A stretch of 44,951 nucleotides of DNA, taken from the UHGV virus genome UHGV-0212259, one strand, 5' to 3'. The notes under the pieces are model-generated. The model did not search any database and was not told the origin of the DNA. It saw only the letters and a program-made list of their open reading frames with translations. The position numbers were made by a program, and so were the translations under genes. The stretch's first letter is position 1. Each line of letters opens with the position of its first letter. The stretch comes from a virus. Below, in pieces: positions 2,408 through 39,067 of this stretch.

Positions 2408-2671
2408 CTATTCCAGAATATTCCTCACGTAATCCTGCAACATGAACACTTTCAGACGCAGTTGCCGCACGCATTCTGCGTTCTGAACGTCGATAGCTAA
2501 ATCCTCGTCCGCGTCGCTACTTGGTGGCGCCAGTTTGCACGGCGGCTGCATCATCGTCGTATCCGGGGATGGAATTGGCGTTGGCGACGGCGCGGGACTT
2601 GAGCTGCACGCGCTCAGGGTCAAAAGTGCACACGCTGCGACCAGGCGTTTTAATGTACTTAACGACTTCAC
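2408..2671 (-). CDS. o-spanin (Rz1-like outer-membrane lipoprotein)
   Basis: GTG start with GAGGTGA SD; signal peptide with lipobox LSAC; Pro-rich mature part; starts inside the i-spanin ORF in another frame and extends past its stop. Confidence 0.6.
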   Translation of the reverse strand: MKSLSTLKRLVAACALLTLSACSSSPAPSPTPIPSPDTTMMQPPCKLAPPSSDADEDLAIDVQNAECVRQLRLKVFMLQDYVRNILE

Positions 2672-2903
2672 GGGTAATCACCTCTGATTTCGTCTTGCCT
2701 TCGTTGTCAGCGGCTGCAGCCTTTGATTCGTCCTGCTGCTGCCGTTGTGTTTTCTTCGCTAACTCAGCCTGTGCCTTCTGCTGCTGCTGCGAAACGAGAT
2801 TCGCCCGGCCTTCGCTCCAGCCGCTGCGATACTGGTAGATGCCGTGTGCGTAAGCCAGGATGATGAAACATGCTCCCGCTACGACAGTTGCTTTAAGATT
2901 CAT
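2517..2903 (-). CDS. i-spanin (Rz-like inner-membrane spanin)
   Basis: N-terminal TM helix (VVAGACFIILAYAHGIY) followed by a Gln/Ala/Lys-rich coiled coil; overlaps the lipoprotein ORF in typical spanin architecture. Confidence 0.6.
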   Translation of the reverse strand: MNLKATVVAGACFIILAYAHGIYQYRSGWSEGRANLVSQQQQKAQAELAKKTQRQQQDESKAAAADNEGKTKSEVITREVVKYIKTPGRSVCTFDPERVQLKSRAVANANSIPGYDDDAAAVQTGATK

Positions 2904-7227: not shown

Positions 7228-8478
7228 TTAAAGTGCGAAAGTCACCGGGATGTTGATTACTGGTTTAACCACCGGCATCTCATAAACTACAGGATAGCCG
7301 AGAGCATCTGCCATATGGTCAATGATGCCGTCTTTAGCTGGCTCTCCATTATCGTCGTATGCCTGCTGCTCCAGCGTCTTCGCTATCTCAGGGCATAAGT
7401 GGTCGTTAATCCACAGCTTACCTTTTTCCAGCGCGGTATTCACCGCTAAAACACGGTCTTTAACCGGGGGGTTGGCGGATTTAGCGCGAACATCAAAACC
7501 GGCCTGCTGTAGTAAGGCGATATCAGAGATTGATGCCGAGTTGGTTTTGCGGTTCTTGCCGCTGGCGTCGGGGTAAACGACGATGCGGTGGCCCTGCGAC
7601 TTCCACTTCTCGGTAATTACCCGCACGGTGTCTGGTGTATCGAACAGGCCTTTCAGTTCTGCAACCGCGTGCCAGCCGTCTTTACGCTGCACATACACGG
7701 CGCTGGCGTTCTTCGTAACGTTGAAGTCCTGCCCTATGTACAGCGTGTCCCCCGGTTGAATCGTCTCTTTGCTGCGATGTTTGCGGCGGTCATAGGCGTA
7801 ATACACGCTGCCGGAGGTAAGGTTGACGAACTCACCATTCAGGTACGCGTTAATCAGTTGCGCCGGGTAAGTCTCTGTCAGCGAGCTAATGTAATCCGGC
7901 GGAAGGAATCGCGCATTCTCGTGAGTTGATGCCTGCACCATTGAGTAACTCGGTGTCGGATTCTCTTTGAACTTGGCAAAGACGAACTTGAACCCTTCCG
8001 GCGTCGTGGTAACAGAGATGTGGTTAGTTACGCCAGGAATAACCAGACGCATACGGGCTACAATTTTGTTCCACGCCAGCTCAGCTTTTTCGCGACTCAA
8101 TACGTCCAGCTCATCCACGACCGCAGCCGCGATTTTGAAGCCCACAATCGAACCGGGGTTATCCATCGAACGGCAGATAACAGTACCGAGCACCGTCTTA
8201 CCCCGAGTAACCACAACCTCTTTGTCGCCGGATTTAACCAGCACATCAAGGCCGAGCAGGTTAGCCGCCTCCTCGAATGTTGGGTAGAAGATGTCGCGTA
8301 TGGCCGGGTATGTCGGGCCGAAGTAGCCAAGGCGCGTACCAGGGTGCTTTAGCATAAAAGTAAGCAGGTCAAGGCAGCCGACGAAGGTCTTGCCACTGCC
8401 GAAGCCGCCGACATAGGCCTTGTATTTGTTATCGCAATTCAGAAACAACGCCTGAGGGGCCGATAGCTGGATACTCAT
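7228..8478 (-). CDS. Terminase large subunit
   Basis: 416 aa; N-terminal Walker A-like GGFGSGKTF; start overlaps stop of upstream small-subunit gene; followed by portal. Confidence 0.85.
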   Translation of the reverse strand: MSIQLSAPQALFLNCDNKYKAYVGGFGSGKTFVGCLDLLTFMLKHPGTRLGYFGPTYPAIRDIFYPTFEEAANLLGLDVLVKSGDKEVVVTRGKTVLGTVICRSMDNPGSIVGFKIAAAVVDELDVLSREKAELAWNKIVARMRLVIPGVTNHISVTTTPEGFKFVFAKFKENPTPSYSMVQASTHENARFLPPDYISSLTETYPAQLINAYLNGEFVNLTSGSVYYAYDRRKHRSKETIQPGDTLYIGQDFNVTKNASAVYVQRKDGWHAVAELKGLFDTPDTVRVITEKWKSQGHRIVVYPDASGKNRKTNSASISDIALLQQAGFDVRAKSANPPVKDRVLAVNTALEKGKLWINDHLCPEIAKTLEQQAYDDNGEPAKDGIIDHMADALGYPVVYEMPVVKPVINIPVTFAL

Positions 8479-9020
8479 TCCTCCACCTCGCCCATATTCG
8501 TTGTTACTATTTTACCTACAGGCTCCGCGACACTGAAAATAATCTCGGTCGGTGCCGGTTCTTCGGTGGATTCGACTGGTTTATCTTTGCCAAGACCCAG
8601 CTTAGCCGCGGCAAACGTAGCAGAAATACCGGCGGCCCCTGTCTCGGTAAAGTATGCCTCTTCCAACGCCTGCGCGGTTTCATATGCTTCTGCAAATGCG
8701 GGAATCTCGCGCAACCACAGCTTAATAATCGGGATAGTGACGCCGATGTGCAAGGCAAAACGGGCCAATGACGGTGGTTTATCCTGAATCAGCGGGCGTT
8801 CGTCACCCTTTGACGTAGGCACTAGTTCCCACGACGTGCGGTCGAAGAAACGAATCAATTCGTCGCAATAGTCCGGGTCCCACAACGCGGCGGAATTACG
8901 GGATGATTGATAAAGGCTCTGTTTACCGCGCGGTCGTCTACGGCGACGGTTTGCGCTAACAGCTTCTTCATGTGCCGCTTGCACCACCTCTGGCGATGGC
9001 TGCTTAAGTTTCAGCTTCAT
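8475..9020 (-). CDS. Terminase small subunit (putative)
   Basis: About 181 aa ORF directly upstream of and overlapping the large terminase gene; basic N-terminal region; start placed at ATG 9020 with AAGGGGA SD (track ORF extends to 9059). Confidence 0.5.
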   Translation of the reverse strand: MKLKLKQPSPEVVQAAHEEAVSANRRRRRPRGKQSLYQSSRNSAALWDPDYCDELIRFFDRTSWELVPTSKGDERPLIQDKPPSLARFALHIGVTIPIIKLWLREIPAFAEAYETAQALEEAYFTETGAAGISATFAAAKLGLGKDKPVESTEEPAPTEIIFSVAEPVGKIVTTNMGEVEE

Positions 9021-9112
9021 AGAATCCCCTTGCATATGCGTCTGACCATCAGAGCGCACCAGACGCGCCCTACGCGTCTAAAGGGATTATATAAGGGGAT
9101 TGGGCGGGATGT

Positions 9113-9136: not shown

Positions 9137-9293
9137 TTGTGGTGTGGCTATTTTCGGCTTACCACCCATTGCAGTAATTGATTTATGCAATCTGCTTTCG
9201 AAAACCCGTTAAAGGACTTTGAGTAAACACCGTACATCACAGTCAAAAACACCGTTCCGCGGTATTCCTCAAATAAAACATCATCAAACTCAA

Positions 9294-9530
9294 TCATTCC
9301 CCACTCTCCTCTTTAGCAATACGTTGCTCAGTTTTAGTGATGCCCCTGCGCGTGAATAACACCGGGCTTGTCTTAACGTGCGTCATAAGACGGTTGTTAT
9401 AAATTACGTGGCGCTCGCAGTCAACGTCTTTGCTGTACTTCGCAATCGTCATTTCGTTGATGCCGGTTTGTCGGCATGTCTCCGCCATCGTGCCGTATTC
9501 TTTTATCAGGTTCGGAATGCTGGTAATCAT
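9294..9530 (-). CDS. Hypothetical small protein, possible HTH DNA-binding
   Basis: 78 aa; segment GTMAETCRQTGINEMTIAKYSKD resembles a helix-turn-helix. Confidence 0.3.
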   Translation of the reverse strand: MITSIPNLIKEYGTMAETCRQTGINEMTIAKYSKDVDCERHVIYNNRLMTHVKTSPVLFTRRGITKTEQRIAKEESGE

Positions 9531-9745
9531 TCTGCAGCAATCTCCACTATGGATATAATTGCAACCTTCGAGTTGGGTGGCATACGCGAGGCCACATCTG
9601 ATTCAATCGATCGAATATCCTTTACTGTAAGTTTTTCACCTTTTTCTGGTGACGCCGTACAGTTGCCGAAGCCAGTTCCTGCGACGCTTGTCCAGGCATA
9701 ACTGATAAAGAAACGTTTCATCATAAGAAATTCCTCGTTGTCCAC
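9527..9745 (-). CDS. Hypothetical small protein with N-terminal hydrophobic/signal-like segment
   Basis: 72 aa; MMKRFFISYAWTSVAGTGFG hydrophobic N-terminus. Confidence 0.3.
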   Translation of the reverse strand: MDNEEFLMMKRFFISYAWTSVAGTGFGNCTASPEKGEKLTVKDIRSIESDVASRMPPNSKVAIISIVEIAAE

Positions 9746-9888
9746 ATCGCATTCGGATATTTGTTATCGCGGTCCTGCACTACAGCAATCATGTTTCCAC
9801 GTTGCACCAGGCAGACGTGCCGCTGTTGCTCGCCGTTGTAGCGGCGCCAGATTGCTTCTTCGATTGCTGCGTTAATGTCACTGAACAT
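9724..9888 (-). CDS. Hypothetical small protein (about 54 aa)
   Basis: ATG-initiated ORF MFSDINAAIEEAIWRRYNGEQQRH... filling the gap between neighbouring genes; below ORF-track length cutoff. Confidence 0.25.
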
Positions 9889-10138
9889 ACCCAACGCCCC
9901 ACATAACTAACATCCCAACCGCTACACCAATGAGGATTGATACTGTGGTATTAGTCCACGCCCGCTGGCTGCGCAAAGTTTCGGCGTTCTCCAGAATATC
10001 GCGAACACGCATTAAGTGTTCAATCTCCAGTTTCGCGGCGGTCAGTTCCTGAGTTGCTTTTGAATATTTACCGTTAACCCTGTCGAGAGCCTTCTTAAGG
10101 TCTTTGTTGTTCTTCTTGAGTTGCTCGATCTGCTCCAT
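9878..10138 (-). CDS. Coiled-coil protein with C-terminal TM anchor
   Basis: 86 aa; heptad-like coiled coil (EQIEQLKKNNKDLKKALDRV...) then hydrophobic tail VSILIGVAVGMLVMWGVGYV. Confidence 0.4.
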   Translation of the reverse strand: MEQIEQLKKNNKDLKKALDRVNGKYSKATQELTAAKLEIEHLMRVRDILENAETLRSQRAWTNTTVSILIGVAVGMLVMWGVGYVQ

Positions 10139-10140
10139 AA

Positions 10141-10323
10141 CTACCCCACTATCTCGTCACCAAGCCACGCCGTTTCTCGTATATCGTCAACCACACAGGC
10201 GGCGTGCTCACGGCTAATTGCAAAAATGTAGAAGCTGAACTTCTTCCCGTCGGCGTCGATATGGTTAACCGAGTAGGGTTTCCACAAGACGCCATCGATA
10301 ACTACTGGTTTAGGCGACTCCAT
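10141..10323 (-). CDS. Hypothetical protein
   Basis: 60 aa ORF tightly packed in the early gene block. Confidence 0.3.
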   Translation of the reverse strand: MESPKPVVIDGVLWKPYSVNHIDADGKKFSFYIFAISREHAACVVDDIRETAWLGDEIVG

Positions 10324-10600
10324 CTTCTGGTCCGACTACATTGTCATACAGCGGGATTATTACGTCGGCTCCGTTCTTTAAGGCCCCGTTTGCCGTGGTG
10401 TAGTAGGCCAGTGACGAACCACTCTCACCGACGAACAACCCCGCGTACACGTTCGGTTCTTGCATCTTAATAGCCAGTAGCTCTTTAAACGCCTCCAGTT
10501 GAAACTCACCGTTAATTGATAGTTGCCCGCCTAACGTCTGTTTCTCTGACTCAAGCACCAGGATACGGTTCTCGAGTGATGCGATTGTGATTTTAGGCAT
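10310..10600 (-). CDS. Hypothetical protein
   Basis: 96 aa ORF; stop/start overlaps with neighbours. Confidence 0.35.
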   Translation of the reverse strand: MPKITIASLENRILVLESEKQTLGGQLSINGEFQLEAFKELLAIKMQEPNVYAGLFVGESGSSLAYYTTANGALKNGADVIIPLYDNVVGPEDGVA

Positions 10601-10851
10601 TATTCTGCTCCCTCATAAAAATCACCATTTCTGTAATCGCCATCAAAATCGTCGTTAGTAGGAGCAGGTTTGTTCAGGTTGAAGCGGTTAATCAGTTCAC
10701 GACGTGTCTCGTAAAGCGACTCTACCATTTGTTCAGCTACAGCGATTTTAGTATTCAGGACGTGCATCACGTGGCTGATGTCTACGCCGCCGTTAACAGC
10801 CTCTACCATCATCTTTTCGTATTCGCGGTCAGTCATTTCTTCTCTCCCCAC
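10600..10851 (-). CDS. Hypothetical protein
   Basis: 83 aa ORF (alternative ATG at 10833). Confidence 0.35.
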   Translation of the reverse strand: MGREEMTDREYEKMMVEAVNGGVDISHVMHVLNTKIAVAEQMVESLYETRRELINRFNLNKPAPTNDDFDGDYRNGDFYEGAE

Positions 10852-10988
10852 ATGCGATTGAGATACTTGTTCTTGTCCGGCCCAGGGAAACTGTTACGTT
10901 TCATCAGTTCCTCGCGTGTAGGGAACGGGGTGTTACTGACTTTACGGCCTACTCGTAATGGTTGGCTTACTTGACCTTGTTCGCTCAT
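10830..10988 (-). CDS. Hypothetical small protein (about 52 aa)
   Basis: ATG ORF MSEQGQVSQPLRVGRKVSNTPFPTREEL...; overlaps neighbours by a few nt. Confidence 0.25.
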
Positions 10989-11137
10989 TTCTTCTCTCCT
11001 GCGTAAGCTGCTTTCAGTGTTTGCATCGCAGCGAACCAGAACGCGTCAGCGGGGATACTGCTACTAAGGTTACTAACGGCGATACGTGCCATCAGTTGTG
11101 CGTCTTTGAATGCTTCGATATCTGTGATTTTCATCTT
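10985..11137 (-). CDS. Hypothetical small protein (about 50 aa)
   Basis: ATG ORF MKITDIEAFKDAQLMARIAV... about 25 nt downstream of the predicted transcription start of the minus-strand promoter at 11168..11196. Confidence 0.25.
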   Translation of the reverse strand, partial: KMKITDIEAFKDAQLMARIAVSNLSSSIPADAFWFAAMQTLKAAYAGEKK

Positions 11138-11167: not shown

Positions 11168-11196
11168 AATATAATAGGGTCGAAGGTAATAGTCAA
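11168..11196 (-). promoter_or_regulatory. Sigma70-like promoter (TTGACT-17-TATATT) with operator palindrome overlapping the -35
   Basis: Minus-strand TTGACT (11196..11191), 17-nt spacer, TATATT (11173..11168); operator TGAATAGTTGACTATTA spans the -35. Confidence 0.5.
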
Positions 11197-11218: not shown

Positions 11219-11250
11219 AAAAAAAAATCCCGGCTGGGTCAGGGCCGGGA
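11219..11250 (-). terminator. Rho-independent terminator after the endolysin gene
   Basis: Hairpin TCCCGGC..GCCGGGA at 11228..11250 followed on the minus strand by a 9-nt U-run. Confidence 0.65.
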
Positions 11251-11403
11251 TAAAACTGGAGAGCAGAGGGATGGAGCAGGAGGTGATTTAAGTATCGTCG
11301 GATTAGTCTCAGGTGTCAACCTTTACGGAGAGTGTCAATCACACCCCAAATCACGCCAGTTATCGCACCAGCCCAATAGCCAGGAAAATGAAGTCAAACT
11401 CTG

Positions 11404-11904
11404 TCATTTAACAGCCCTCCCGATAGCCTCAGCCTCTTGCCACGGTTTACCGTCGAACAGGGCCAGACGCCCTGCCGTACGGCGACGCAGGCCTAGTAGC
11501 GGTTTGCCGTTCTGGTTGATGAACAGCGCCAGCTTGGCACGCAGGGCCACAACATCGCCCGAGCGGAGTGCCTTACCCGTGCCGGTGGTAGCTGCAATCA
11601 CACCGGCGCCCGCGTTATACACCAGGTCGCAAACAGCGTCGAACTGCGCCTGTGTCAGTGAATGGTGCGCCACCGAATCCACCGCAGCTACGGCCTTAGC
11701 CATATCGCGATTAAGTAACAGGAGGCCTTGTCCCGGTGTGATAGTCTGCCCGGCCTTAACATGTGGGCCATAGCTTCCGTACCCAATAGTAAGGTACTTC
11801 TCATTTGGCGTAGCACGATATGCAGTTCCACGGAACCCCTCGAACGCAGCGGTAAAATGCAATCCATTATCTGAAATGTTTCGAGACACGCTTATGCCCT
11901 CCAT
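11404..11904 (-). CDS. Endolysin, lysozyme-like glycoside hydrolase (GH24-type)
   Basis: 166 aa; N-terminal FEGFRGTAY...YLTIGYGSYG motif block typical of phage lysozymes; directly downstream of two membrane-protein genes. Confidence 0.75.
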   Translation of the reverse strand: MEGISVSRNISDNGLHFTAAFEGFRGTAYRATPNEKYLTIGYGSYGPHVKAGQTITPGQGLLLLNRDMAKAVAAVDSVAHHSLTQAQFDAVCDLVYNAGAGVIAATTGTGKALRSGDVVALRAKLALFINQNGKPLLGLRRRTAGRLALFDGKPWQEAEAIGRAVK

Positions 11905-12139
11905 ACGACAGCCACGCCTGACGAATCTGGCGCAGCGCGACTAATGTGATTAATGTCTCAGGCAGCGTAGGCGACATGCTGCCCTGTAACAGGTGAATAC
12001 ATCCGGCGGCACAGACGATAGCAGTCAGGATATAGAGAACACGCCCGAACAGCCCGTCGTCCACGCGTTCATTATACACGTTGAACAGGGACGAAGCGCC
12101 CATTGCCAGCATTACGACAAACCAGAATAGCTCAGTCAT
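11867..12139 (-). CDS. Small membrane protein, second holin or antiholin
   Basis: About 90 aa from ATG 12139 (ATGA overlap with upstream holin stop); two predicted TM helices; overlaps endolysin start. Confidence 0.45.
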   Translation of the reverse strand: MTELFWFVVMLAMGASSLFNVYNERVDDGLFGRVLYILTAIVCAAGCIHLLQGSMSPTLPETLITLVALRQIRQAWLSYGGHKRVSKHFR

Positions 12140-12440
12140 GCGGTCCTCCTGGGCGGGCAATATCGCCGCCCGATACGATGCCAGAAAGGCGGGAATAGAT
12201 AGGCATCCAGAGAATGGCAATGATGAATCCGAGGCCAGCTATCTCGCGCTCCCCGGTAATGCCAAACCATTGAGCTGCAAGAGGTGCGCCAAATACGGCG
12301 CAAGTGAAGCCGGTTGCGATAAAGCAGAAGCCGTCGATAGGGCCAGAAATAACGGACTTATGTTGTCGCAGTCCGATAACCCCTCCAGCAAGAGCGGCCG
12401 CCAGAAGCCACCCCGTCACTGTTTCAGTAAATTTATCCAA
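12132..12440 (-). CDS. Holin (multi-TM small membrane protein)
   Basis: 102 aa; TTG start; three hydrophobic segments; first gene of holin / membrane protein / endolysin cassette. Confidence 0.55.
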   Translation of the reverse strand: MDKFTETVTGWLLAAALAGGVIGLRQHKSVISGPIDGFCFIATGFTCAVFGAPLAAQWFGITGEREIAGLGFIIAILWMPIYSRLSGIVSGGDIARPGGPHD

Positions 12441-12499: not shown

Positions 12500-12940
12500 T
12501 TATCCTAATAGTTGTTTGGTAATAATCTTGCCGCCGGTGTTAGTGTCGAACTTCGATGCAACGGCTACGCCGCCATGCGCCGAATATTCGCACTCCATAG
12601 CGGCTAATGCATATGGCGAGCCAGACCCCACGGCGGCGTACACATCAGCAACCGGAATAACTGAACTAAGTGCACAATCCCATGATTTATAGAACGCGAC
12701 TTTGTACACCTTTTCTGTGTCTTTCACGAACACCAGGGCTTCGAAATCGAAGTCATAATGTCTTGCCTGAAGGATATACGGACAATCGATAAGCATAGTT
12801 CCGACTCCGGCATCACCAGCTACCCCGATAACATAGACATCACTCTCATATATCTTTGTGTCTGTGTTGTAACAGTTACTTCCGCACACAACACGGGTGT
12901 CACAGGCCATTGTCTTTCCGTCAAACGCGATTGTAGTCAT
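12500..12940 (-). CDS. HslV/proteasome-beta-like N-terminal-nucleophile hydrolase (putative threonine peptidase)
   Basis: 146 aa; begins MTTIAFDG (Thr directly after Met as in HslV); VIGVAGDAG and AVGSGSPYALAA segments resemble HslV GFAGG and GSGGPYA blocks; similarity judged from memory. Confidence 0.5.
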   Translation of the reverse strand: MTTIAFDGKTMACDTRVVCGSNCYNTDTKIYESDVYVIGVAGDAGVGTMLIDCPYILQARHYDFDFEALVFVKDTEKVYKVAFYKSWDCALSSVIPVADVYAAVGSGSPYALAAMECEYSAHGGVAVASKFDTNTGGKIITKQLLG

Positions 12941-13230: not shown

Positions 13231-13517
13231 CACTCCACCCCTTCCACATGTGTAACAGCCCCACAGTTCGCGCACTCGACGTAATCCGGGAACTGGTCTT
13301 TGTATTTCTGTAACTCGGCGTTCACTTCTGCCAGTCTTGACACAAGCCCCTCTATTTCCATATCCGTAGTGGTTATGTAGTCCTGGAAACTGTCGTCCAG
13401 TTCCTTGTAATCTTCGTAACTTATCCAGTCGCCTTCGTCACTCTTAACCAGCTCATGATACGGGTGGCACGAGTTAACACACACAGCTCTAAACTCATAT
13501 CTCTGTACCATAATCAC
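13230..13517 (-). CDS. Hypothetical protein with C-terminal CxxC
   Basis: 95 aa; CVNSCHPYHE and YVECANCGAVTHV motifs. Confidence 0.35.
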   Translation of the reverse strand: MIMVQRYEFRAVCVNSCHPYHELVKSDEGDWISYEDYKELDDSFQDYITTTDMEIEGLVSRLAEVNAELQKYKDQFPDYVECANCGAVTHVEGVE

Positions 13518-13717
13518 TTCTCCTGTTTACCAAGTCGCTTAGGTGAGCATATAGCGCGTACCTCTGAATCGTTGGGCTTGTCGCCCTGAAACAGGAAGTG
13601 CGCGTTCTCTGCGGCGCGTGCTGCAGACTGGCACGCCTCCATCGAATAAAACGTTTCTGCTGCCGCTAGTTGCATCTGGCCCGCAGACAGTACCCAGATA
13701 AAGAGGATGCCGGTCAT
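13514..13717 (-). CDS. Small secreted/periplasmic protein (signal peptide)
   Basis: 67 aa; N-terminal hydrophobic signal-like segment MTGILFIWVLSAGQMQLAAA. Confidence 0.35.
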   Translation of the reverse strand: MTGILFIWVLSAGQMQLAAAETFYSMEACQSAARAAENAHFLFQGDKPNDSEVRAICSPKRLGKQEK

Positions 13718-14412
13718 TCAGGTATAACCCCTCCGCAGTTGTCGCATACTATCGTGTTTCCGTGGTAGGTACCGCAGTGGGCAGGAACGCACTGACATAC
13801 AGGAAGCCCCACGTCTTCCTTACGGCAACCAGATTGCTCGGCTATAACCCCGCATTTGGCACAACGCCTATGCTCTTCGCCGTTAGGGTAATAATATTCC
13901 CACTCATGTTTGCATTTCTGCGTATAGGCTTTCGGCTCATACTCCGGGTCATCCCACTCACGCACACCACATTCGCAGCAAAACCGACTACCAGGCACGT
14001 TGCCCTCGTGGCCTTCGGCAATAAACAATCCTGGAGCGATAATCCAATTGTGGTCGCATTCCTGAGTATCTTCTTTTCGGCAACCGGATTGTTCTGGTGC
14101 ATCCTTACATCCGAGTTCCTCAAGTGCTTTGCTAAGGTATTGGCGACGCATGGTGTCAGTCATTGCACTATTTGCCCGCCGGATGTACCCAATCGCGCCT
14201 TTAGGGTCCAGGTCAACGATTGAACGAAGACACATAACCTCGTTTTCAGCGCAATCCAGCGCACAGGTTAGTTCCTTAATCTGCGCCGAAGCATCACGTA
14301 ACTGATTCTTAAGTGACTGCACTTCATGCGCCAGGTCTTCGCACCGGTTGTTATTTACCTGCTGCCGTAGCTGGTCAATCAGGTACTCGAATACTTCGTT
14401 TTTGTTACTCAT
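13714..14412 (-). CDS. Cys-rich protein with N-terminal coiled coil and internal repeat (probable zinc-binding)
   Basis: 232 aa; multiple CxxC pairs (CCECG, CAKCG, CDNCGG); the nonapeptide EQSGCRKED occurs twice. Confidence 0.45.
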   Translation of the reverse strand: MSNKNEVFEYLIDQLRQQVNNNRCEDLAHEVQSLKNQLRDASAQIKELTCALDCAENEVMCLRSIVDLDPKGAIGYIRRANSAMTDTMRRQYLSKALEELGCKDAPEQSGCRKEDTQECDHNWIIAPGLFIAEGHEGNVPGSRFCCECGVREWDDPEYEPKAYTQKCKHEWEYYYPNGEEHRRCAKCGVIAEQSGCRKEDVGLPVCQCVPAHCGTYHGNTIVCDNCGGVIPE

Positions 14413-38709: not shown

Positions 38710-38816
38710 TCTTTAATCCTTTGGTTAAGAGGTTACTGGTTAAGGTGAATGCGCCAGGCGGGAACCACCCGCTTTTCGTGTGCGACACTAGGCGCAAACT
38801 TATTCTAGCACACTAC

Positions 38817-38875: not shown

Positions 38876-39067
38876 ATGTCAAGTTTACCAGTTTCCTTAA
38901 TTCTGTTTGCACTGCTCGTCTATTTCGCACCTTTCCTGGTTGCGTACTTCCGTAACCATAAAGCGAAGTTAGCGATATTCATGGCTAATCTGTTTCTTGG
39001 CTGGGTTCTTCTACCGTGGGTATTTATTTTAATCTGGGCTTGCAACTCGAACGTTAAAGAGAAGTGA
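38876..39067 (+). CDS. Small membrane protein (2 TM)
   Basis: 63 aa; two hydrophobic helices (LILFALLVYFAPFLVAYF, LFLGWVLLPWVFILIWA). Confidence 0.45.
   Translation: MSSLPVSLILFALLVYFAPFLVAYFRNHKAKLAIFMANLFLGWVLLPWVFILIWACNSNVKEK

Follow-up and report, generated by a model that had tools for sequence, protein, structure and literature searches.

A predicted tail-anchored coiled-coil protein encoded between the lysis and terminase genes of a Kagunavirus genome

The minus-strand reading frame at positions 9878..10138 of the window (the whole 44,951-nucleotide stretch of viral DNA analysed here, UHGV virus genome UHGV-0212259) is a real gene under purifying selection, more than a chance open reading frame. 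Its 86-amino acid product, p86 (MEQIEQLKKNNKDLKKALDRVNGKYSKATQELTAAKLEIEHLMRVRDILENAETLRSQRAWTNTTVSILIGVAVGMLVMWGVGYVQ), is predicted to consist of a coiled-coil rod ending in a C-terminal membrane anchor. The p86 family is an orphan one, accessory and dispensable across the genus. We tentatively propose, with somewhat less than even confidence, that p86 would act as a dispensable, parallel-dimeric, tail-anchored tether, the head of which may bind a cytoplasmic or membrane-proximal partner for the purposes of host modulation or anti-defence.

Gene order, transcription signals and neighbouring small proteins

The window is the complete genome of a K1G-like E. coli siphophage of the genus Kagunavirus (Guernseyvirinae), and its gene order maps onto that of the fully annotated fEg-Eco06. 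The DNA of positions 9000-12500 matches 390 phage records, nearly all of them Guernseyvirinae, the best matches being the E. coli Kagunaviruses CR01, UTEC10, SZH-1, K1G and fEg-Eco06 (88-95% identity). On the minus strand, from about 16.9 kb downwards, small genes are followed by an HslV-family peptidase, two holins and an endolysin; 3' of the endolysin, a gap of 270 bp precedes some ten small genes (11134..9148), after which come terS, terL, the portal and the head genes. The features concerned are the following.

38876..39067: Imm_superinfect protein (PF14373, E=3.9e-13)
13514..13717, minus strand: p67 (phrog_3766), a small protein of the Guernseyvirinae core, with an N-terminus resembling a signal peptide and two conserved cysteines
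12500..12940, minus strand: HslV-family peptidase
11404..12440, minus strand: lysis cassette, comprising both holins and the endolysin (phrog_2359, 5e-31; phrog_2508, 1e-34; phrog_33703, 6e-47)
12132..12440, minus strand: holin (PHROG)
11867..12139, minus strand: holin (PHROG)
11404..11904, minus strand: endolysin (PHROG)
11219..11249, minus strand: intrinsic terminator after the endolysin, CCCGGC-N9-GCCGGG then T9 (RNAfold, -13.8 kcal/mol)
11168..11196, minus strand: sigma70-like promoter sequence, TTGACT-17-TATATT, located about 34 nt before the ATG (11134) that opens the nin-like unit
9148..11134, minus strand: mosaic nin-like unit of about ten small genes, p86 included (PHROG/Pfam matches for DUF2737 and NinH)
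10141..10323, minus strand: p60 (phrog_10509), upstream neighbour of p86, with an AlphaFold2 model of pLDDT 83.8
9878..10138, minus strand: p86, predicted tail-anchored coiled-coil protein of an orphan family (ATG reading frame, dN/dS, 86 homologous clusters, AlphaFold2)
9527..9724, minus strand: p65, small protein, the ATG-corrected form of 9527..9745, with its start at 9724
8475..9059, minus strand: terS
7228..8478, minus strand: terL
2517..2903: i-spanin (phrog_2536, 9e-57)
2408..2671: o-spanin, overlapping the i-spanin (lipobox LSAC; phrog_5672, phrog_1267)

The first-pass annotation had assigned p86 and two other small genes, 13514..13717 and 9527..9745, to an early minus-strand block. 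This description is not supported: the stretch includes two holins and an endolysin and runs straight into terS and terL. The three genes flank the holin-endolysin cassette, p86 lying between the lysis and the terminase genes, and the spanin genes sit in the head module, away from the other lysis genes. The nin-like unit to which p86 belongs is made up of p49, DUF2737, p83, p96, p60, p86, p55, p65, NinH and p49b, and its gene content differs among relatives.

The stem of the terminator at 11219..11249 is identical in seven of seven relatives, and in the same seven the promoter-like site at 11168..11196 keeps invariant hexamers around a variable spacer. A similar site is found upstream of terS. 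Across the genome, seven promoter-like sites (at least 10 of 12 positions) were counted against 6.8 expected from Markov shuffles; promoter counts were rejected as evidence of timing, not being above chance, and therefore only conservation and position back the site at 11168..11196. Because of the conserved terminator and this promoter-like site, p86 and the other nin-like genes appear to form a unit of their own that would be transcribed by the host RNA polymerase. Early or middle expression of p86 would be compatible with the unit having its own terminator and sigma70-like promoter, and is possible. The only Kagunavirus time course found in the literature, a coarse one from K1B4 (PMC12645636), names just four genes as early and assigns NinH and the lysozyme to the middle class. 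The CiPGr gene-essentiality data (PMC9825161) concern phage seszw, a Skatevirus, and were set aside as irrelevant to p86.

The gene order bears directly on the idea that p86 is an antiholin-like regulator of lysis timing, the rod or transmembrane domain (TMD) of which would bind a holin and delay or sharpen its triggering. The p86 gene shares its strand with the holin-endolysin cassette and lies 1.3 kb downstream of it, and the single TMD carries a GxxxG-type helix-packing motif. A cytoplasmic antiholin has a precedent in RIII of phage T4. However, p86 lies outside the cassette, from which it is separated by the conserved terminator, the promoter and five unrelated small genes; it matches no PHROG lysis family, and it is missing from about 94% of the sequenced Kagunaviruses with the same holins. 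We regard an antiholin role as unlikely.

As for the two other small proteins, p67 (13514..13717) had been read as a signal-peptide protein. Of 475 matching phage records, Jerseyvirus included, 474 have it at full length, and its gene starts in an ATGA overlap with the upstream gene. What stands of that reading is a hydrophobic and conserved N-terminus, MT(S/G)ILFIWVLSAGQMQLAA followed by (S/T/A)ETFY, with a Kyte-Doolittle value of 1.39 against 1.46 for the signal peptide of the o-spanin, a conserved h-region ILFIWVL and a conserved AxA-like site (LAA/AAA). What does not fit is the n-region, 'MT', which has neither lysine nor arginine. Two cysteines, C29 and C57, are kept in 90% or more of the sequences, and it is plausible but unproven that p67 would be an exported small disulfide protein with an atypical signal peptide. 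In a few singleton metagenomic variants, the C-terminal domain of p67 is carried on unrelated N-termini.

The reading frame at 9527..9745 had been credited with a hydrophobic N-terminus and a membrane or secreted location, neither of which we retain. Its GTG start is probably wrong, since in relatives the gene begins with the ATG at 9724, which shares an ATGA with the stop codon of the gene upstream. The corrected protein, p65, has a maximum Kyte-Doolittle value of 0.79, within the range of soluble proteins, and is probably soluble. Its homologues begin with MKxFFISYxW followed by polar residues. The motif FGNC, with an Asn at -1, is not a lipobox, and its Cys is replaced by Ile in homologues from Salmonella phages; neither a lipoprotein signal nor a signal peptide was recognised in 9527..9745. 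When the DNA is compared with that of ST20 and fEg-Eco06, the p65 gene shows up as an insertion of 197 bp.

The p86 gene and the predicted anatomy of its product

We take p86 to be a gene and not a chance reading frame because its dN/dS is low, because it is tightly packed with its neighbours and because its indels are in frame and respect the predicted structure. Pairwise dN/dS among six close phage homologues is 0.05-0.17, at dS of 0.25-0.49. The ATG of p86 lies 2 nt past the stop of the upstream gene, and its 3' end shares 11 nt with the next gene. The homologue P0057 has an in-frame insertion of seven residues, that is one heptad, which keeps the register, and the homologues P0070 and P0076 have in-frame duplications of eight residues inside the hydrophobic tail, which make the transmembrane segment longer and do not destroy it. 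Natural variants with a disrupted tail also occur (P0086, frameshifted, and P0068, truncated), as does a natural p96::p86 fusion (P0067). Three modules can be distinguished in the protein, based on conservation and predicted structure.

10013..10138, minus strand: head, residues 1-42, strongly conserved predicted coiled coil in heptad register (pN/pS 0.08; column entropy about 0.3 bit)
9947..10012, minus strand: spacer, residues 43-64, variable predicted helix with two alleles (pN/pS 0.55; column entropy about 1 bit)
9890..9946, minus strand: predicted transmembrane segment, residues 65-83, TVSILIGVAVGMLVMWGVG, with G71xxxG75 (19-residue Kyte-Doolittle value 2.06; pN/pS 0.26 over residues 65-84; column entropy 0.72 bit over residues 65-86)

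The earlier description of p86 as a coiled coil with a C-terminal transmembrane anchor was borne out by its heptad pattern, its modelled helix and its hydrophobic tail. AlphaFold2, run with a 28-sequence alignment, gave one unbroken helix from residue 2 to residue 85, with a mean pLDDT of 80.6. Over residues 1-56 the heptad a/d contrast is 0.475 versus 0.19 +/- 0.08 in shuffled sequences (p=0.004), and residues 4-49 follow an unbroken register (I4-L7-N11-L14-L18-V21-Y25-A28-L32-A35-I39-L42-L49). Nine residues of the head, N11, K12, D13, K15, K16, N22, G23, K24 and Y25, are invariant in the 28-sequence sample alignment A1, and N11 occupies a heptad 'a' position. The heptad pattern, this invariant Asn and the register kept through the 7-residue insertion of P0057 would suit a putative parallel dimeric coiled coil.

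Conservation is distributed unevenly along p86. In the head, conservation at the solvent-exposed heptad positions matches that of the core (0.30 versus 0.27 bits), and the spacer occurs as two alleles, RVRDILENAETLRSQRAWTNTT and CEYKLLKAELCIVRNQARANFA. A constrained rod surface, a spacer free to vary and a membrane segment would together have the look of a tethered binding module. Conservation of the head could partly stem from the shallow divergence of the family, the members of which are 64-96% identical.

The most hydrophobic 19-residue window of p86 coincides with residues 65-83, and its Kyte-Doolittle value of 2.06 equals that of the PHROG-confirmed holin of this phage (2.06), the i-spanin TMD being at 1.72. 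The TMD contains four glycines (G71, G75, G81 and G83), of which G71 never varies and G75 is kept in 90% or more of the sequences, and only three residues, YVQ, follow it. A crude sum of insertion free energies of the Hessa type is slightly positive (+0.5 to +0.7 kcal/mol), and insertion of this segment into the membrane is likely, not certain. The positive sum, together with the tail-disrupted variants P0086 and P0068, could speak for p86 being no membrane protein at all, either a soluble coiled coil with its C-terminus buried or bound to a protein, or the product of a gene with little function. Yet the hydrophobicity of the tail equals that of a verified holin TMD, its pN/pS is 0.26, and the duplications in P0070 and P0076 lengthen the hydrophobic segment, while strong purifying selection opposes a functionless gene. 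Such a reading is in our view very improbable.

With one TMD near the C-terminus and no N-terminal signal, p86 has the predicted architecture of a tail-anchored protein. Its N-terminus, MEQIEQLKKNNK, has no signal sequence, and the p86 of the window has no cysteine. Within the 64-residue N-tail there are 13 Lys/Arg, with R56 and R59 placed just before the TMD and no charge after it. The positive-inside rule is established knowledge. Since the basic residues are N-terminal of the TMD, in a strongly charged N-tail that has no signal sequence, an N-in/C-out orientation with a cytoplasmic rod is strongly favoured by this rule. The TMD would still be in the ribosome tunnel when translation terminates, so that insertion would have to be post-translational, as for tail-anchored proteins.

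Distribution of p86 and the slot downstream of p60

A search of a 5.8-billion-protein index yielded 86 p86 clusters, all found by close similarity (64-96% identity), and most of the longer contigs that bear them are of about 44 kb. An exhaustive HMMER scan of 1.84 billion representatives returned only two 50%-identity clusters of p86 and nothing beyond. Among 50,697 phage records, p86 is present in seven (EM1, ULINTec2, phiSD1, LM02P1, two records of SZH-1, and ST20) versus the 390 matched by the surrounding DNA, and it is missing from close relatives such as CR01 and fEg-Eco06. It was not found in 5,426 complete E. coli genomes, nor in 72,556 plasmids. Searches against Pfam, PHROG, NCBIfam, PADLOC and PDB gave no match other than insignificant coiled-coil noise, as which we also took a hit to phrog_276 (E=0.0043) confined to the coiled-coil part. 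One homologue from NR, P0066, is labelled 'G-rich domain on putative tyrosine kinase' (GNVR), a label we rejected, no Pfam GNVR match being obtained at E<=0.1. BLASTP of p86 against p96 (10310..10600) found no similarity.

Host takeover or exclusion had been suggested for p86 in the first-pass annotation. Our analysis neither supports nor refutes this guess, with which the accessory distribution fits. As a factor of superinfection exclusion or competition between phages, p86 would sit at the inner membrane and stop a competing or sibling phage at DNA entry or in its early steps. Small inner-membrane proteins that occur sporadically in a hypervariable region, as p86 is predicted to be, are typical of exclusion genes, and p86 may be driven by a host-type promoter. 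Known exclusion proteins, though, mostly act from the periplasmic side, whereas nearly all of p86 is predicted to be cytoplasmic, with only three residues outside. Moreover, an Imm_superinfect protein is already present in the genome of this phage (38876..39067), which counts against the guess, and p86 matches neither PF14373 nor any other exclusion or defence profile in Pfam and PADLOC. We consider an exclusion function improbable.

The neighbour p60 is annotated right upstream of p86 in four of six relatives carrying p86; in phiSD1 its position is an unannotated gap, and the LM02P1 record has no annotation. In fEg-Eco06 and ULINTec2, p60 bears a 2LMC-like label that would make it a T7 Gp2-like inhibitor of RNA polymerase. 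This reading was rejected: phmmer against PDB returned nothing, and Foldseek of the confident p60 model against PDB had no match under E 0.9; Gp2 was not among its top 50, and RB69 Dmd reached the highest TM-score (0.55). As the 'RNA polymerase inhibitor' label is unsupported, it is not used here as evidence for a host-takeover block.

In 64 relatives, the slot downstream of p60, where p86 lies in the window, holds a bare transmembrane peptide of 22-30 amino acids. The sequence evidence indicates that this 27-aa mini-ORF is a real gene, its pN/pS of 0.18 pointing to purifying selection, and it is unannotated in almost every record listed. Homology of the p86 tail with the mini-peptide was considered and rejected, leaving a positional analogy only. 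A Smith-Waterman comparison against shuffles gave p=0.035, and an HMM built on 68 p86 tails failed to pick up the mini-ORF in the six-frame set of fEg-Eco06 (E=34). The 'VQ*' ending is common to both because both overlap the same downstream gene start, and the charge distributions of the two predict opposite orientations.

The presence of a bare transmembrane peptide in the same slot suggests that a membrane element could be the point of the locus. This, like the glycine-rich TMD of p86 (G71, G75, G81, G83), would suit a small membrane-active toxin, in which the TMD oligomerises and depolarises or permeabilises the inner membrane, the coiled coil serving only to bring the copies together. In p86, however, it is the soluble head and not the TMD that is most constrained, and the link with the mini-peptide is weakened by the unsupported homology and the opposite predicted orientations. 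A toxin is very unlikely.

Beyond p86 itself, the present check corrects the context of the region (lysis cassette, spanins and the mis-started reading frame) and flags an unannotated, conserved mini-gene in relatives.

Proposed role of p86 and comparison with known systems

In the tether model that we tentatively favour, p86 would be inserted after translation, as a tail-anchored protein of the inner membrane, and its rod of about 64 residues would stay in the cytoplasm. A parallel homodimer would probably form, a possibility made probable by the invariant Asn at 'a', the lack of repulsive g-e' pairs and the GxxxG in the TMD. Since the surface of the head is conserved like its core and the spacer is free to vary, we propose that the head (residues 1-42) may bind a specific cytoplasmic or membrane-proximal partner and keep it at the membrane. 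Partner capture would modulate a host or competitor function, for example in host takeover or anti-defence, and the role of p86 would be neither structural, nor in replication, nor in core lysis. In favour of a tether, core lysis functions (holins, endolysin and i/o-spanins) and an Imm-type exclusion protein are encoded elsewhere in the genome, and p86 is accessory and belongs to a mosaic unit that has a conserved terminator and promoter-like site of its own. Against it, p86 has no homology to characterised proteins, so that its function has to be read from its anatomy.

A bolder version of the tether model would make p86 the founder of a class of phage tail-anchored tethers. The parallel dimer would be inserted post-translationally, for example via the host YidC, and the 42-residue head would sequester at the membrane some cytoplasmic factor of the host, for instance part of the divisome or an effector of defence. 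In that case a swappable 'membrane-element' locus would lie directly downstream of p60, occupied by p86, by the 27-aa transmembrane peptide or by both in tandem. Taken jointly, these propositions are quite improbable.

If the predicted anatomy is right, p86 is a compact and tractable tail-anchored protein of a virulent phage, with only 86 amino acids, a non-essential gene and natural allelic spacers. Tail-anchored proteins must use a post-translational insertion route of the host and, to our knowledge, few of those from phages have been studied. Were a partner of the head to be defined, a mechanism of host takeover or anti-defence would be added; as matters stand, p86 joins the other uncharacterised small accessory proteins of a mosaic region.

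Among known systems, the tail-anchored proteins ElaB, YqjD and YgaM of E. coli (DUF883) are of about 100 amino acids, with a helical cytoplasmic N-terminal domain and a Gly-rich C-terminal TMD. p86 resembles them in the position of its TMD near the C-terminus, the few residues beyond it and the predicted post-translational insertion. The two differ in that there is no sequence relation, DUF883 (PF05957) not being among the Pfam matches of p86 even at E<=0.1; p86 is phage-encoded and restricted to Kagunavirus, and nothing suggests ribosome binding.

With the i-spanins (Rz-like), p86 has in common one inner-membrane TMD, a coiled-coil rod and a location near lysis genes. In i-spanins, however, the TMD is N-terminal and the rod periplasmic; p86 would be their mirror image, without a partner o-spanin. 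Its N-terminus is charged, its sole hydrophobic segment is at residues 65-83, and it has no PHROG spanin match. A u-spanin of the T1 gp11 type needs an N-terminal lipoprotein signal with a lipobox, in addition to a C-terminal TMD. p86 has the latter, but it lacks an N-terminal hydrophobic region, a Cys and hence any lipoprotein signal. Both the i-spanin and the u-spanin identities were rejected on topology, the genuine spanins being encoded at 2408..2903.

T4 Imm-type proteins (PF14373) are, like p86, small phage-encoded inner-membrane accessory proteins, but they have another architecture and no similarity to p86. Protein p16.7 of the Bacillus phage phi29 is a small dimeric coiled coil with one TMD, and its cytoplasmic part binds DNA and the terminal protein. 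It is like p86 in being a membrane-tethered coiled coil with a partner-binding cytoplasmic part, which in p86 is a proposal. In contrast to p86, which is dispensable, p16.7 has an N-terminal TMD and acts early, organising replication in a phage that uses protein priming; there is no homology between the two. Overall, p86 is an uncharacterised orphan within a broad and well-known kind, the small accessory membrane proteins of phages.

A single-TM mini-ORF in related phages

Examination of the relatives revealed a mini-ORF of 22-30 codons coding for a single-TM peptide, M(S/G)LEVVI(S/G)LVGLSYFIGLLVGFLWG(R/K)Y, which is not present in the window. The ORF is present in 64 phage records, and nearly all of the records listed leave it unannotated. 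Its positions in sequences of relatives (L handles) are as follows:

L003, 3751-3834: single-TM mini-ORF
L007, 2751-2834: single-TM mini-ORF
L009, 401-484: single-TM mini-ORF
L010, 401-484: single-TM mini-ORF
L001, 4286-4369 on the reverse complement, minus strand: single-TM mini-ORF

The mini-ORF lies immediately 3' of the ortholog of p60, the upstream neighbour of the predicted tail-anchored coiled-coil protein p86, and in EM1, SZH-1 and phiSD1 it is located instead 3' of p86. Because its pN/pS is 0.18 at a pS of 0.38, this reading frame is probably a real gene missed by annotation.

In relatives, p60 itself (10141..10323, minus strand in the window) is labelled as an RNA polymerase inhibitor, T7 Gp2-like (2LMC). 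Its confident AF2 model (pLDDT 83.8) adopts a beta-beta-beta-alpha-beta fold, for which RB69 Dmd gave the top TM-score (0.55); a comparison with the PDB yielded no significant match in either fold or sequence.

Natural chimeras and the p65 insertion

Metagenomic proteins P0067 and P0124 are both natural in-frame chimeras. P0067 combines the N-terminal coiled coil of p96 (10310..10600) with p86 through the junction 'INGK', common to both proteins, with deletion of p60. P0124 carries the N-terminus of the 232-amino acid protein (13714..14412) and the C-terminal domain of p67, the phrog_3766 protein. The N-terminal 42-48 amino acids of p96 are also found with different C-termini in many phages.

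Compared with ST20 and fEg-Eco06, the p65 gene (9527..9724, minus strand) constitutes a 197-bp insertion, flanked by the phrog_5407 gene and NinH. Residues 1-53 of p65 are 100% identical in UTEC10, M01 and AMO_3701M, and identity with Salmonella Jerseyviruses is about 45%.

Lysis, peptidase and Imm_superinfect genes

2408..2903, minus strand: i-spanin/o-spanin pair, overlapped architecture, lipobox LSAC
12500..12940, minus strand: HslV/proteasome-beta-like peptidase, 146 amino acids, phrog_1040 at 2.8e-33
38876..39067, plus strand: Imm_superinfect (PF14373) protein, 63 amino acids, E=3.9e-13

The spanin pair is part of the head-morphogenesis module, about 8.5 kb away from the holin-endolysin cassette. 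The peptidase, with the N-terminal sequence MTTIAFDG, adjoins the holins on their upstream side; its match to Pfam Proteasome is weak and sub-threshold (2.6e-4). The Imm_superinfect gene lies on the opposite strand, with dNMP-kinase, PNK and exonuclease genes as neighbours.

Candidate RNA elements

11319..11291, minus strand: second promoter-like site, TTGACA-17-GATACT, 5' of the terminator
38734..38798, minus strand: int-alpA RNA (RF02996) match, Rfam, gathering level

The promoter-like site is followed on its 3' side by a CU-rich stretch with the anti-Shine-Dalgarno-like CACCTCCT and then by the terminator, an arrangement (11219..11319, minus strand) which could give rise to an sRNA of about 65 nt. 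Its Rfam match to Betaproteobacteria toxic sRNA (RF02278) is sub-threshold, at 25 bits (E=0.0044) against a gathering score of 50. The int-alpA RNA match scored 36.4 bits, where the gathering score is 35.8.
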